This document shows positions 27,001 to 33,000 of a stretch of 64,000 bases of DNA, piece after piece. Source of the DNA: Glaesserella sp. (GTDB lineage Bacteria; Pseudomonadota; Gammaproteobacteria; Enterobacterales; Pasteurellaceae). The DNA lies in contig NZ_JBGYBX010000044.1 in NCBI RefSeq assembly GCF_041817755.1, positions 12,573 through 76,572 of the forward strand. The letters run 5' to 3'. Positions within the stretch are counted from its first letter, which is position 1. Each line of letters opens with the position of its first letter. Made by a program: the position numbers.

Positions 27001-30000
27001 AATTACCACTTTTACATCCGAGAATTCCGTCAAAGCAAAGGCACTGAATACTTCATGCGAAGGCGGATAAATCACTTTACCGTTTAAGCGCTCTTGCTGG
27101 ACAAACTGTAATATTTGTTGAAAATAAGGCTGTGATTTTTCATCACCAATGGCTTCTTTCCATGTATTCATTTTAAAACCCTTGTTAATATATAGTTAAT
27201 GATAAGAATTTATTGTTAAAAATAGATTGTTATTTATACAACTTTCAACTTTTTTTAGAAAAATACTGAAATTTTTCTCGCTTTTTAATGTGGAGAGGTT
27301 AGAATACTCAAAATTTTTTGAAAAAATCAAATTTTTTGATAATCCTTTCCCCAACACACAGGAGCATTAAACATGATTAAAGGTGTACAAATTACCGAAT
27401 CCGCAAACAAAAATCTATTAAACTCTTTCTGGTTGTTAGATGAAGAAAAAAACGAAGCGCGTTGCTTAGTTGCTAAAGGTGATTTCCAAGAAGACCAAGT
27501 CGTTGCAATCAGCGAATTAGGTCAAATCGCATATCGCGAAGTACCGGTAAACGTCGCACCGACCATTAAAGTTGAAGGCGGTCAGCACTTAAACGTAAAC
27601 GTGTTACGTCGCGAAACATTGGAAGATGCGGTGAAAAACCCTGAAAAATATCCTCAATTAACTATCCGCGTATCCGGTTATGCCGTGCGTTTCAACTCAC
27701 TTACGCCGGAACAACAACGTGATGTAATCACCCGTACATTCACTGAAAGCTTATAATTTTTCGGTTTTATGATAGGCAAAGGATGCCTTTAGCCCGATTA
27801 ATATATTGTACGACGTAGTAAAGCTCCCGCAAGGGAGCTTTTTTGTTCTCGTGAAAATATTCTCAGTGAATCATCCGCTTAAATCATATCACATGAATTA
27901 ACGAGTATGTTTTTGTCGTACCGTTTTTCTTGATGGATTTCTCGCTTACAACCTGCCGTAAACCTGATAAAATCCGTCTAATTTTTTGCAATCAAAAACA
28001 CATTCTATGGCTTTAATTAACCTTTCTAACGCCTATTTAGGCTTTGGCGATCATCCACTACTTGATCACACCGAATTACACATTGAACAGGGCGAACGTG
28101 TCTGTCTTGTCGGACGAAACGGGGCAGGCAAATCGACCCTAATGAAAGTGCTGGCTGGCGAAGTTCAGCTAGACGATGGCAAATTGATTTTTGAAAAAGA
28201 TATTGTTGTCACTCGTTTAGAACAAGATCCGCCCCGACATATTGAAGATACTGTGTTTGATTATGTCGCAGAAGGGATTGCACATTTAGCCGATCTTTTA
28301 AAGCAATATCACCACATTTCGCAACAAATGCTGACAGATTACAGCGATACGCTGATGTCGCAACTTTCGCAAGTTCAGGCTCAACTGGAACACGCTAACG
28401 GTTGGCAGTTTGAAAACCGTATTCAAGATACGTTGAAGCTGTTAGAGCTTGACCCAGAAAAACGTTTGTGCGAGCTGTCGGGCGGTTGGGTTCGCCGTGC
28501 GGCGTTGGCGCGTGCGTTGGTGGCGGATCCAGATGTGTTACTGTTGGACGAACCGACCAACCATTTAGATGTGGATACGATTGCTTGGTTAGAAAATCTG
28601 TTGTTAGAGTTTAAAGGCAGTATTATTTTCATCTCTCACGACCGTGCTTTTATTCGCAAAATGGCAACTCGCATTGTCGATTTAGATCGGGGCAAACTGG
28701 TTTCCTATCCTAGTAATTACGATGTTTACCTTGAAACTAAAGCCGAAGATCTGCGTGTAGAAGCCTTACAAAATGAGCTGTTTGATAAAAAATTAGCCCA
28801 AGAAGAAGTTTGGATCCGCCAAGGAATTAAAGCTCGTCGCACTCGTAATGAAGGGCGTGTGCGAGCCTTGAAAGCCTTGCGAGAAGAGCGTAAAGCACGC
28901 CGAGAAGTACAAGGCACGGTAAAAATTCAGCTCGATCAAACCGCTCGTTCAGGCAAAATTGTGTTTGAAGTGGAAAATGCCAGCTACGAAGTGGCAGGTA
29001 AAACCTTGCTGAAAAACTTCAGCACCACGATTTTGCGTGGCGATAAAATTGCTTTTATCGGGGCAAACGGAATTGGCAAAACGACCTTAATTAAACTGTT
29101 GCTTGGCGAAATTCAGCCGACAGCAGGGACGGTACGTTGTGGCACTAAGCTAGAAGTCGCGTATTTCGATCAATACCGTGCAGAGCTAGATCCTGAAAAA
29201 ACGGTAATGGATAACGTGGCGGACGGCAAACAAGATATTGAAGTCAATGGGGTAAAACGCCACGTACTTGGTTATTTGCAAGACTTCCTATTTCCGCCGA
29301 AACGGGCGATGACCCCAGTCAAAGCCTTATCGGGCGGTGAACGTAACCGCTTGTTATTAGCTAAATTATTGCTAAAACCAAATAACTTACTGATTTTGGA
29401 CGAACCTACCAACGACCTTGATGTAGAAACCTTAGAGCTACTGGAAGAGATGTTGGCGGATTATCAAGGCACTTTGATTATAGTCAGCCACGACCGTCAA
29501 TTTATCGACAATACCGCAACGGAATGCTACATCTTTGAAGGCGAAGGGGTAGTGAATAAATATATCGGCGGCTACCATGATGCGAAGCAACAGCAGGCGA
29601 ATTATTTTGCAACATTAGAAGCAAACAAGCGGTCAGATTCAGCGAAAAATGTGCAAAAAATGGAAGAGAAAGCACCGCTTGTTGAACCTGAAAAGCCAAG
29701 ACAAGATATGGCTAAAAAAGTCAAACTTTCTTATAAAGAGCAACGAGAGTTAGAAGCCCTGCCTGAAAAAATGGAACAGCTTGAAGCAGAAATTGAAGCC
29801 TTACAAGCCGAAGTGAATAGTGCGGATTTCTTTGCTAAAGATCCGAGCTATACTCAAGCTCAGTTACAAAAATTAGCGGATACGGAAATGGCGTTAGAGC
29901 AAGCGTTTGAACGTTGGGAAGCGCTTGAGAATATTAAGAATGGTGTAGTTTAATATTCGTGAATACAGTTATCCAAAATTTTAGGATAACTGCCGATGTT

Positions 30001-33000
30001 ATTATCATTATAATTTATCCGCAATAATTGCTATGGGGTAGATAATGAAACATGAAATTCAAGATAAATTAAAGCATATCAGCCAAGAAGAGCATATTAA
30101 TTTCCTATTAGCTGTGGAAAGCGGTAGTCGGGCGTGGGGATTTCCTTCTCCAGATAGTGATTACGATGTGCGGGCGGTTTTTATTCGTCCGCAACAAGCT
30201 TATTTATCTATTGAAGAACCGAAATCGACGTTTGAATATATTGAAAATCAATGGTTTGATGTTGGCGGATGGGATCTACGCAAGGTATTACAATTATTAC
30301 GTAAATCCAATGCCGTATTATTAGAATGGTTTAATTCGCCTATTGTTTATCAACAGCAAGAGGTATTTGTCAAAGATATTTCTCCGCTTTTAAATGAATA
30401 TTTTCAAGTGGCTCCCATAGTGCATCATTATCGTGGTATCGCAAAAAACGCATTATCGCAATTAGATTTAAATCACGAAATAAAATTGAAAAAATGGTTT
30501 TATGTATTGCGCCCGTTATTAGCAGCCGATTGGGCAGCAAAGAAAAAAACAATTCCGCCAATGAATATTTTTCAACTTTATCTAGATTTGTCGAATACTT
30601 TAAAAGCGGAAATTGACGAATTAATCAATTTAAAAGCAACACAACCTGAGAGCTATTTACATCAATTATCTTCAACATTAATTCGATTTACTCACGATAT
30701 ATATAACGAAATTGATAATTTGCAAATTATTCCTGAAAACAGACCGCTTGCAGTAGAACCTTTGAACGAATTATTTATAAAGACATTAAATAGAATAAGA
30801 TGAACTTAACGATTCAAGATTTAAAAGATCAAAATCTGATTTTATTTGAAGTGATTTCAGGTAGCCGTGCTTATGGGCTTGATTTACCACATTCAGATAC
30901 GGATATTCGAGGAGTATTTTATTTGCCGGATAATGCGTTATATGGTTTGAATTATATTCCGCAAGTTAATAATGAAACAAATGATGAAGTTTATTTTGAA
31001 CTTGGGAGATTTGTTGAATTATTACTACAAAATAATCCTAACGTGTTGGAATTGTTAGCTTCACCAGAGCATTGCATATTATATCGACATCCACTTATGG
31101 ATTTATTAAAGAGTGATTATTTTATTTCTAAGCAATGTCAGCAAAGTTTTGCAGGATATGCCTTTGGACAAATAAAAAAAGCTCGTGGGTTAAATAAAAA
31201 AATTGTTAATCCTATTCCTAAAGAGAAAAAAAGCTTATTAGAATTTTGTTTTGTTCTTGAACAAGATAAATCCATTCCATTAAATAAGTGGTTGGTTGAC
31301 TCAAATTTAAACCAAAAACAGCTTGGATTAGTTGCGATAGAACATGCTAAAAATCTTTATGCGGTATTTTTAGACCGAGATTGTCAGTTGGGTTATCAAG
31401 GCGTGATGAAGAATGAAGAAGATTCGGTTATCCTGAAAAGTCGGGTTGAGAAAGGCTTATCACCGGTGACTTATTTGATCTTTAATCAAGAAGGCTTTAG
31501 CAGCTATTGCCGAGATTACCAGTCTTATTGGCAGTGGGTGGAAGAACGAAATGAAGAGCGTTACAACAATAACCAAGCGCATGGTCAACAGTATGATTCA
31601 AAAAACGTAATGCATACTTTCCGTTTATTAGAAACGGCAAAAGAGATTGCATTATATGGTGAAATTCGTGTTCACCGACCAAATAGAGAGGCGCTATTGG
31701 CAATCCGTCGCGGTGAATTTACTTATGAAGAACTGATTTTGCGATCGGAGCAACTCATGGCGGAAATTGAAGTACTGTTTGCTCAATCCGATTTACCTGA
31801 ACGTGCAGATCGTGAACAAGCAATACAGGCTCTGGTTGCAATCCGCCGGCAATTATATCGATGAGAATAACATGACAAGAACAGATAACTACGAACAACG
31901 TTTTGGCGGAATCGGTCGCCTTTATACGCCTGAAGGATTAGCAAAGCTACGTCAATCGCATGTGTGTGTGATTGGTATCGGCGGTGTTGGCTCTTGGGCG
32001 GTGGAAGCTTTGGCGCGTTCAGGCGTGGGGAAACTTACCTTGATTGATATGGATGATATTTGTGTCACTAATATCAACCGTCAAATTCATGCAATGTCAG
32101 GCGAAATCGGAAAACTGAAAACCGAAGTAATGCAAGAGCGTATTGCCAAAATCAACCCTGAATGTGAAGTCACGATCATTGATGATTTTCTCACGCAAGA
32201 TAATTTGAGTGACTATCTGCTGCGTGGTTATGATTATGTGATTGATGCGATTGACAGTGTGAAAGTCAAAGCGGCGTTAATCGCTTTTTGTAAGCGTCAT
32301 AAAATTAAAATAATTACCACGGGCGGTGCAGGCGGGCAAACGGATCCGACCCAAATTCAGATCACCGATTTAAGCAAGACCATTCAAGATCCGCTGGCTT
32401 CAAAAGTGCGCAGCTTGTTACGCAAAGAGTATAACTTCAGCCAAAACCCGAAGCGTAAATTTGGAATTGATTGTGTGTTTTCAACTCAGCCGTTAATTTT
32501 TCCGAAAATGAGCGAAGGTTGTGAAGTATCTGCTACGATGAACTGCGCCAATGGTTTTGGGGCGGCAACGATGGTGACGGCAACCTTTGGTTTTTTTGCC
32601 GTCAGCCGTGTTATTGAGAAATTACTGCGCTAATTTTGCAAATTTTTACGCAAAACAGACCGCTTGTTTAAAAGCAAACGTTTGCATTTTTACGACAGAA
32701 AACTTATACTACACGCCTAGTGCCAAAAGGAACTAGACATGCAGTACCAAACATATTTTACAAAATCGAAAAAGTATTCTCAGTCAAGCCTTGTTCAACC
32801 ACGAGGTTTGACTCTTTTTTTATTCATTTCAAATCAAGATCCCAATAGTTAGGGATCTTTTTTTTGCCTAAAATTTGCGTAAGAGGATAAATAAACAATG
32901 AGTCAGTTAATTCGTACACTAAAAAGCCATATTCGTGATGAGGTCATTAAAAAAGGCGGGTGGGTCAATTCTCATGCACATGCGGATCGTGCATTTACCA

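Follow-up and report, generated by a model that had tools for sequence, protein, structure and literature searches.

Why should two paralogous nucleotidyltransferase (NTase) genes stand tightly packed between uup and tcdA in a Glaesserella genome, and what could their products do? The question is raised by a 64,000-nt stretch of Glaesserella sp. DNA (assembly GCF_041817755.1, contig NZ_JBGYBX010000044.1, forward-strand positions 12,573 to 76,572), hereafter the window, whose positions are numbered from its first nucleotide. The two genes, here named rlaP-A (A) and rlaP-B (B) and together called the cassette (Table 1), are annotated in RefSeq just as 'DNA polymerase beta superfamily protein' (Glaesserella sp.). 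A previous inspection of the window without database searches (the sequence-only reading) had taken them for RlaP-like enzymes of horizontal origin, coupled to tcdA. The cassette proved to be a horizontally acquired insertion into the existing uup-tcdA operon spacer of one Glaesserella lineage, and its genes were found as an ordered pair in several phyla. By analogy with characterised RlaP enzymes, we give about an even chance to the cassette being a mobile two-enzyme RNA 3'-end repair module used in biological conflicts.

The family assignment made by the sequence-only reading was borne out by profile searches, which identify A as a bona fide RlaP and B as a divergent, long RlaP subtype. A matched Pfam PF10127 (RlaP) with 231 bits over residues 1–245 (profile positions 1–248 of 249), and B with 83 bits over its N-terminal residues 13–127 only (profile 19–139), the cutoff being 23. 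Both proteins carry the expected catalytic signature, GSRAWG...DSDYD in A and GSRAYG...HSDTD in B. The catalytic sets, consisting of G27-S28, D39-x-D41 and the third aspartate D72 in A, and of G21-S22, D33-x-D35 and D62 in B, are invariant or at least 90% conserved among 56 and 53 homologues, respectively; by these alignments, both active sites were shown to be intact and under purifying selection. The block over which A and B can be aligned comprises the NTase core and, after it, a helix whose shared 'LL.K.N..LE..SP' pattern had been noticed by eye (35% identity over A21–99/B15–89 in BLASTP; 97% probability over A19–99/B13–89 in hhalign). Past this block homology was undetectable by either method, the C-terminal halves having diverged beyond alignment. 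A also matched phrog_14344 (3e-61), and B matched phrog_388 over its full length (2e-45). The nearest relatives of B, cellular or viral, are all uncharacterised.

According to the sequence-only reading, no biochemical function was known for such proteins, a statement that still applies to the pair as a pair but is outdated for the RlaP family. PfRlaP and PaRlaP, from Pseudomonas, where the gene lies between rtcB and rtcA, add one or two nucleoside monophosphates (NMP) or deoxynucleoside monophosphates (dNMP) to the 3'-OH of RNA, prefer Mn2+, do not act on DNA or protein, and favour the 5' half of anticodon-cleaved tRNA (bioRxiv 10.64898/2025.12.29.696909). In the same December 2025 preprint, Carruthers, Fatma & Huang report that RlaP partly restores aminoacylation of a tRNA short of a nucleotide, count more than 10,000 sequences in the family, and suggest that RlaP serves as an antidote against ribotoxins that first cut their target and afterwards trim it (bioRxiv 10.64898/2025.12.29.696909), a repair role also predicted by earlier comparative genomics (PMC6514570, PMC7824862).

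The AlphaFold2 model of A (predicted local distance difference test, pLDDT, 95.6; predicted template modelling score, pTM, 0.90) starts with a Pol-beta NTase core, continues with a helical domain and ends in a helix at the C terminus; this predicted secondary-structure order is the one described for the PfRlaP crystal structure, where the terminal helix packs back on the NTase domain (a comparison at the level of descriptions). The model of B (pLDDT 90.5, pTM 0.67, with lower inter-domain confidence) shows an NTase core (residues 1–100), a basic helix (113–136), a beta-rich insert (about 146–228) and a C-terminal helical bundle; lysines K127, K133, K134 and K144 form a basic patch that is invariant in the 53 homologues. 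Sequence searches of A and B against PDB chains gave no useful match, and neither protein matched the Pfam PolyA_pol or CCA-adding families. With Foldseek, the best solved structure for A was HalB (PDB 9dbh; E 2e-6, probability 1.0, template modelling (TM) score 0.43–0.49, 14% identity). Kanamycin nucleotidyltransferase ANT(4') was among the best PDB matches of both models (A, E about 2e-5; B, E 0.04, probability 0.95), which would be in line with A and/or B nucleotidylating a small molecule, as ANT(4'), AadA and LinB do. Such a function is very improbable, given that the likeness is one of fold only (TM 0.24–0.43, 10–13% identity), that Pfam places the proteins in RlaP and not in an aminoglycoside nucleotidyltransferase family, that the substrate of characterised RlaP is RNA, and that neighbouring genes encode RNA end-healing enzymes, not resistance determinants.

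That the cassette is an insertion follows from its presence and absence in close relatives together with its deviant composition. Relatives of TcdA were scanned, one genome per species, and uup, A, B and tcdA were mapped on the resulting 80 Pasteurellaceae loci; uup of the window was 86–97% identical to that of the Glaesserella, Mannheimia and Actinobacillus loci. The A-B junction was recovered in another metagenome-assembled genome (MAG) of the same species as the window (Glaesserella sp., L020; 95–99% identical), and, with B intact and A truncated to its first half (about 121 aa), in Mannheimia sp. E16BA (L026/L008). By contrast, the junction is empty in a sister Glaesserella MAG whose flanks are 97–98% identical to those of the window (L009), and also in Actinobacillus genomosp. 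2, A. vicugnae, Mannheimia cairinae, M. glucosida and M. haemolytica (empty-site loci L028, L031, L021, L050 and L061). At empty sites the uup stop codon lies 2–60 nt ahead of the tcdA ATG, and a boundary alignment of filled against empty sites showed that homology stops within the last three codons of uup. Altogether, the pair occupied the junction in only two of about 20 sampled species-representative Pasteurellaceae genomes having uup no more than 6 kb upstream of tcdA. As for composition, the AT-richness formerly judged by eye was verified by computation: GC content of the cassette is 0.349 versus a window mean of 0.440 (s.d. 0.029, same-length windows), the lowest of the 64 kb, and each of the ten lowest-GC windows overlaps it. 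GC content at third codon positions (GC3) is 0.25 and 0.27 in the cassette genes, compared with 0.40–0.47 in neighbouring ones.

In the Actinobacillus/Glaesserella/Mannheimia clade the uup-tcdA junction is a hotspot for accessory genes. The same slot holds a ParE-type toxin with an upstream antitoxin-like open reading frame (ORF) in L012 (5473–5998), a SLATT_5 two-transmembrane effector protein in L018 (5288–6004), an AAA_14/DUF4143 ATPase in L017 (4754–5977), a RhuM fragment in L010, a YtxH-like protein in L015, and two unknown ORFs in L027. Counted by species, six besides that of L009 have an empty junction and six others have different DNA in the slot, five of them with ORFs and one with a 141-nt hairpin-rich spacer. 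The junction had been described as conserved, which is right for part of the Pasteurellaceae but not for the whole family, since uup does not adjoin tcdA in G. parasuis, in A. indolicus or in the Haemophilus, Rodentibacter and Avibacterium groups. In Mannheimia sp. E16BA, tcdA is followed on its 3' side (L008:9532–12585) by genes for a 495-aa protein with no Pfam match and a 515-aa OLD-family ATPase-TOPRIM nuclease (AAA_15/DUF2813/OLD-like_TOPRIM), so that the tcdA neighbourhood of this strain holds further defence-type genes.

These comparisons changed the meaning of the tight arrangement at the right edge. The ATGA overlap of A and B (30800–30803) and the 7-nt gap between the B stop codon (TGA, 31862–31864) and the tcdA ATG (31872) were read from the sequence as claimed, and the identity of TcdA was secured by an NCBIfam equivalog. 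The 7-nt spacing arose because the cassette now stands where a uup-tcdA unit that already existed had a very short spacer; the linkage to tcdA thus goes back to the native operon and is probably incidental, without functional meaning. As this case shows, tight spacing to a tRNA-modification gene can be a by-product of operon insertion and need not be a functional clue. A joint action of the pair and TcdA on tRNA, for instance in preparing or repairing t6A/ct6A37 tRNAs, is accordingly the most improbable of the explanations considered. In its favour, both the window and Mannheimia sp. E16BA have the genes side by side and probably in one transcript, and RlaP prefers tRNA cleaved in the anticodon loop, where position 37 lies; against this, uup and tcdA are joined by 2–60 nt where the cassette is absent, unrelated cargo fills the same slot in other species, no tcdA or other ThiF-family gene was found in the examined non-junction contexts of the pair, and the only neighbour recurring over 81 loci is a WYL regulator.

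The first terminator-like sites downstream of uup are the two hairpins 3' of tcdA, none having been found on the plus strand between 29700 and 32781, and hence uup, A, B and tcdA probably form a single transcription unit, as predicted from these signals. A promoter of the cassette's own was considered and rejected: a consensus scan found no sigma-70-like promoter in the uup-A spacer, and inspection by eye gave only a weak TATAAT at about 30009–30014, with a poor -35 element overlapping the right arm of an inverted repeat. This repeat exists, as the sequence-only reading had pointed out, but its interpretation as a conserved boundary of the element did not hold, for it is absent from L020, the nearest cassette-bearing relative. 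No T-run lies on its 3' side, and the terminator scan did not pick it up. It may act as an operator or an attenuator, or be functionless. Scanning of positions 27000–34000 against Rfam returned chance-level microRNA and snoRNA matches only, with no tRNA-like or Y-RNA partner. A long symmetric hairpin at 33881–33961, between the amidohydrolase-like ORF and the convergent next minus-strand gene, gave sub-threshold Rfam microRNA matches on both strands and is most likely a bidirectional terminator. The Apl-type uptake signal sequence ACAAGCGGT occurs 31 times in the window and the Hin-type AAGTGCGGT once. No Apl-type copy lies inside the cassette, three are in the 3' part of uup (29346, 29625 and 29674), one is just past tcdA (32659) and 27 are elsewhere, the nearest flanking copies thus being those at 29674 and 32659. 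This pattern is compatible with acquisition of the cassette by transformation and flanking homology, and is statistically indecisive.

Outside this junction, A and B make up an ordered pair whose members diverge in step, and this pair occurs in several phyla, with representatives in Neisseria, Moraxella, Proteus, Pasteurellaceae and Bacteroidota. Homologues of B are 51–62% identical to the window protein in Neisseria, Moraxella, Kingella, Flavobacterium and Chryseobacterium, and 52% identical in Proteus; B is unusually conserved between phyla, and its family comprises 539 clusters (50% identity) at E <= 1e-30. A metagenome scan with a B alignment yielded 80 loci. Upstream sequence of at least 1.1 kb was available for 59 of them, and 55 of these have A upstream of B in the same orientation. 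Over 59 loci, the pairwise identities of the one gene were strongly correlated with those of the other (r = 0.957, a value reached by none of 999 Mantel permutations), and therefore the two genes travel together. Between distant loci mean identity was 0.56 for B and 0.42 for A, B being the slower-evolving of the two. An A-B overlap or short gap recurs in RH1A, Proteus, Neisseria and the Hymenobacter plasmid, and gyrB is another neighbour of the pair outside the window. A third gene conserved throughout was looked for over 81 loci; apart from the WYL regulator and lineage-specific synteny, none turned up. This regulator, of the WYL+WCX (BrxR/CapW) type, was detected upstream of A in divergent orientation in nine loci, and in the same orientation in L142. 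RtcB was seen near the pair once among the relatives, about 5 kb away, and several loci have end-healing enzymes with no ligase; among the RNA-repair neighbours is a HAD_PNKP phosphatase upstream of A.

In many of these loci the space between A and B is a variable cargo slot. In the 55 paired metagenome loci, A and B are no more than 130 nt apart in 24 and separated by 0.4–5.8 kb in the other 31. Cargo was examined in 31 loci (28 metagenome loci plus L001, L003 and L004) and comprised about 30 unrelated protein families. All spacer ORFs were co-oriented with A and B in 29 of these loci; those out of line were a gene for a 742-aa TonB-dependent receptor (L155) and a 75-aa ORF (L103). Complete recognised defence systems and RNA-repair-type genes (Table 1) are carried by Flavobacterium- and Chryseobacterium-like loci (L001, L004, L111–L114, L119, L132, L136, L139–L142, L146, L158, L160, L161 and L165), whereas some cargo, such as the TonB receptor and small secreted-looking proteins, is not defence-related. 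Large cargo proteins with no Pfam match (L132:5606–7918, L146:5603–8001, L112) could be new defence genes. Neisseria-type loci (L094–L110, L089–L092) carry the DNA-uptake sequence (DUS) GCCGTCTGAA or its variant AGGTCGTCTGAA directly before the start codon of B (examples of such spacers are L094:4654–4679 and L100:7107–8000), with the inserted cargo lying between inverted DUS-like sequences paired as GCAGCCTG...CAGGCTGC. In one Neisseria lineage, in which A and B are 93–98% identical, the spacer is empty or encodes a DUF6968 protein, a 228-aa protein or a 180-aa protein. Since nearly identical A/B loci show four spacer states, cargo of the Neisseria spacer seems to be swapped by cassette exchange through transformation. 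The window copy is the overlapping form, with neither cargo nor regulator.

Table 1. Features in and around the cassette, gene order at the A-B pair in other bacteria, and cargo carried in the A-B spacer
Feature	Position, organism or locus	Strand	Evidence or remark
uup, ABC-F ATPase	27986..29953	+	Pfam ABC_tran x2, ABC_tran_Xtn, ABC_tran_CTD; native left flank
Inverted repeat CAGTTATCC-N9-GGATAACTG	29966..29992	n/a	inside 91-nt uup-A spacer
rlaP-A, short canonical RlaP nucleotidyltransferase, 252 aa, WP_373766210.1	30045..30803	+	PF10127 full-length
rlaP-B, long divergent RlaP paralogue, 354 aa, WP_373766211.1	30800..31864	+	PF10127 N-terminal half; phrog_388 full-length
tcdA, tRNA ct6A37 synthase	31872..32633	+	NCBIfam NF011696 TcdA equivalog, 388 bits; native right flank
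Two terminator-like hairpins 3' of tcdA	32782..32859	+	terminator scan
Amidohydrolase-like ORF	32898..33887		profile match; beyond tcdA
obg, A-B, hslU	Pasteurellaceae bacterium RH1A		A and B overlapping
carB, A-B, pilF	commensal Neisseria		
guaA, A-B	Proteus mirabilis		A and B overlapping
A, two small genes, B	Moraxella		
A-B	Hymenobacter		adjacent; mobilizable plasmid
WYL regulator, HAD_PNKP phosphatase, A, AAA_13 ATPase, B, peptidyl-prolyl isomerase (PPIase)-like protein	Flavobacterium aquaticum		WYL regulator divergent
A, DUF4062 protein, B	Chryseobacterium indologenes		RtcB ~5 kb upstream
Spacer cargo: Hachiman	L140		HamA 293 bits, HamB 1384 bits
Spacer cargo: GajA-like ATPase + GajB (Gabija-like)	L119, L139		GajB 729 bits
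Spacer cargo: DRT UG5-nitrilase	L136		773 bits
Spacer cargo: DRT3	L161		Drt3a 340 bits, Drt3b 616 bits
Spacer cargo: Olokun	L112		OloA 196 bits, OloB 447 bits
Spacer cargo: PADLOC candidate systems	L001; L111; L004/L141		PDC-S06; PDC-M62; PDC-S60, respectively
Spacer cargo: SIR2	L158, L165		
Spacer cargo: R2K ATP-grasp	L146, L165		
Spacer cargo: Thg1 + AAA_33 kinase + SMC-like ATPase	L165		
Spacer cargo: TROVE/Ro-like	L132, L160		

The variable slot admits two further readings. Under the first, the A-B pair would be an RNA-end 'reset' module and at the same time a conserved docking frame, in whose spacer immune guests, namely Hachiman, Gabija, DRT, Olokun and numerous unnamed systems, are swapped and co-transcribed under a BrxR-type regulator, the two NTases healing or sensing the RNA damage of immune activation, and Glaesserella carrying the empty, minimal form; we regard this as a tentative possibility. 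Under the second, which is quite unlikely, A and B would serve routine RNA processing or quality control, and spacer cargo would mark a permissive recombination site between two conserved genes. The neighbours of the pair in Neisseria, Proteus and RH1A are indeed housekeeping genes, and defence genes are missing from its vicinity there, the uptake sequence in the Neisseria spacer could by itself create an exchange point, and part of the cargo has nothing to do with defence. A routine role fits poorly, however, with a patchy and laterally transferred pair (two of about 20 Pasteurellaceae genomes at the junction), with the foreign composition of the window cassette, with the co-orientation of spacer ORFs in 29 of 31 cargo loci, with the strong enrichment of cargo in recognised defence systems, and with the recurrence nearby of WYL/BrxR-type regulators and RNA end-healing enzymes.

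B is also found without a complete A. Phage records with B-like genes number 383 and those with A-like genes 86, and B is nearly always solo on viral contigs, whereas bacteria have the ordered pair. A solo B, 60% identical to that of the window, directly follows hsdR in a Neisseria sp. type I restriction-modification locus (L006:1–9071) that also holds RhuM and Bro-N, with no A-type gene within 8 kb upstream. On large viral contigs, a fusion of HD and AAA_33 kinase domains, an end-healing combination, is encoded 0.4 kb upstream of solo B with ORFs between them (L179:4454–5587), or 2.7 kb upstream with an IS605 TnpB gene between them (L188:3262–4335). In another (L184:2226–4331), a 701-aa CCA-adding-like enzyme fused to HAD_SAK_1, the 'Swiss Army Knife RNA repair' HAD domain, is encoded about 1.7 kb upstream. 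Because B persists with a truncated A in Mannheimia and occurs alone in Neisseria and on viral contigs, the pair is not a toxin-antitoxin system.

These contexts bear on whether the pair might itself be an anti-phage or abortive-infection system, nucleotidylating the RNA ends of host or phage or producing a nucleotide or oligonucleotide signal. NTases of both kinds are known: MenT/AbiEii toxins block tRNA charging, and HalB and CD-NTases make nucleotide or oligonucleotide signals. Defence systems are found between A and B, solo B adjoins a type I restriction-modification locus, the Mannheimia locus has an OLD-family nuclease 3' of tcdA, lateral mobility and AT-richness mark the pair, and a defence enzyme, HalB, is the best solved-structure match of A (E 2e-6). 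We nonetheless consider this explanation unlikely. PADLOC-DB v2 gave no family match at E <= 0.1 for either protein, and so no known defence system was matched; nor was there a channel, HEPN or nuclease effector partner, no HEPN or AbiEi-like ORF and no membrane-protein gene being present within the cassette. The likeness to HalB does not go beyond the fold (TM 0.43–0.49, 14% identity), a truncated A with B kept, and solo B, speak against a dependency of toxin and antidote, and characterised RlaP adds just one or two nucleotides and restores, rather than blocks, tRNA aminoacylation. In addition, the 383 phage records of B-like genes fit counter-defence or repair better than host defence. The window pair thus belongs to no catalogued defence system, and is neither an MNT/MenT-type toxin-antitoxin module nor a Hailong system.

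The mobile repair module, our preferred explanation, would work as follows. A and B would both be template-independent RNA 3'-end nucleotidyltransferases, transcribed with their neighbours, with B translationally coupled to A. Acting jointly, as a complex or in sequence, they would extend damaged RNA at its 3'-OH by one or a few nucleotides, by analogy with characterised RlaP, the likeliest substrates being tRNAs cleaved and trimmed by ribotoxins or abortive-infection effectors. Once mended, the RNA might be usable again at once, or need sealing first by a ligase whose gene lies elsewhere. The module would thus be an RNA-damage 'reset' unit in phage-host or inter-bacterial conflict, a role that would explain the co-orientation with end-healing enzymes and defence systems, and the BrxR/CapW-like WYL control, met in other loci.

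Several observations weigh against this proposal. The activity of the pair is extrapolated from A-like enzymes of rtcB operons, and structural matches are at fold level only, those of A to HalB and ANT(4') having TM scores of 0.4–0.5 and B having no significant one in the PDB. As the sequence-only reading had stated, no ligase or kinase partner, nor a phosphatase, was identified beside the cassette among the neighbours profiled (uup, tcdA and the amidohydrolase-like ORF only); the RNA-ligase association that gave RlaP its name is thus missing at this site, whose flanks are uup and tcdA. Most defence systems in the spacer, such as Hachiman and Gabija, are thought to act on DNA and not on RNA, for which reason a role in repairing damage inflicted by the cargo is not obvious. 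Finally, A and B might do no more than border a site of frequent recombination.

The first biochemical data on RlaP are recent and limited to single genes inside RNA-ligase operons. The present results add a second widespread configuration, an ordered and co-diverging pair of two subtypes that has no ligase and moves between phyla. In Bacteroidota and Neisseria the pair brackets a strain-variable slot that recognised anti-phage systems fill. In the searchable literature we found no description of a tandem, ligase-less RlaP pair or of such a pair bracketing defence cargo, and a two-NTase frame around exchangeable defence systems appears to be undescribed so far. Should immune activation be accompanied by repair or monitoring of RNA ends by the pair, RNA repair would be tied directly to defence islands, and the A-B interval would be a simple marker for finding new defence genes. 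By itself, the window copy is of modest interest, being one mobile accessory cassette from a family whose characterisation is recent, and it offers a cargo-free version that is easily cloned.

Among known systems, PfRlaP and PaRlaP are the natural reference. The window proteins share with them the PF10127 family (end to end in the case of A), the three-aspartate Pol-beta set and, as predicted, the described layout, and attachment of either one or two NMP to an RNA 3'-OH would be expected of the pair by analogy. By contrast with those single genes, the window has two diverged tandem paralogues, with no linked rtcB, rtcA, rtcR or other ligase gene, and B has a beta-rich insert of about 90 residues and a C-terminal half that cannot be aligned with A (Pfam, hhalign). 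Phage RlaPs include T4 NrdC.11 and those of jumbo phages (Iyer et al. 2021, PMC7824862), and the prediction for these genes is that they give cleaved RNAs back their missing nucleotides. The window proteins resemble them in matching phrog_388 (B) and phrog_14344 (A), and the B model superimposes on uncharacterised phage NTases with TM scores of 0.5–0.57; phage copies, however, do not exceed 40% identity with their window counterparts. The idea that B equals T4 NrdC.11 was rejected, the two being 24% identical over the N-terminal 148 residues only.

More distant systems offer partial parallels. Split CC-adding and A-adding tRNA nucleotidyltransferases are two paralogous NTases acting sequentially on one RNA end, and in the same way, as a mechanistic analogy only, two catalytically intact Pol-beta paralogues could share the rebuilding of a short 3' sequence; the split enzymes are of another NTase class, and are housekeeping and not mobile. 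HalB, of the Hailong system, is a defence NTase that synthesises oligodeoxyadenylate and, like A, a small enzyme made of an NTase and a helical domain. The window pair differs from Hailong in that the structural match is confined to the fold, a HalA-like channel partner is absent from the cassette and PADLOC returned no match. MenT/AbiEii and HEPN-MNT enzymes are likewise small Pol-beta NTases of two-gene mobile cassettes, some of which act on tRNA 3' ends. They are set apart from the cassette by the NCBIfam MntA score of A (16.9 bits versus a cutoff of 60; B had no match), by the lack of a HEPN/AbiEi partner, and by the occurrence of solo B and truncated A. Lastly, guests embedded in defence loci are known from the EcoprrI type I restriction-modification locus, which harbours PrrC, and from BREX loci. 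The A-B loci are comparable in that a conserved gene pair brackets variable, co-oriented defence cargo, with a WYL regulator upstream in many Bacteroidota loci, and they are distinct in that the bracketing genes encode two predicted RNA nucleotidyltransferases instead of restriction or BREX components.

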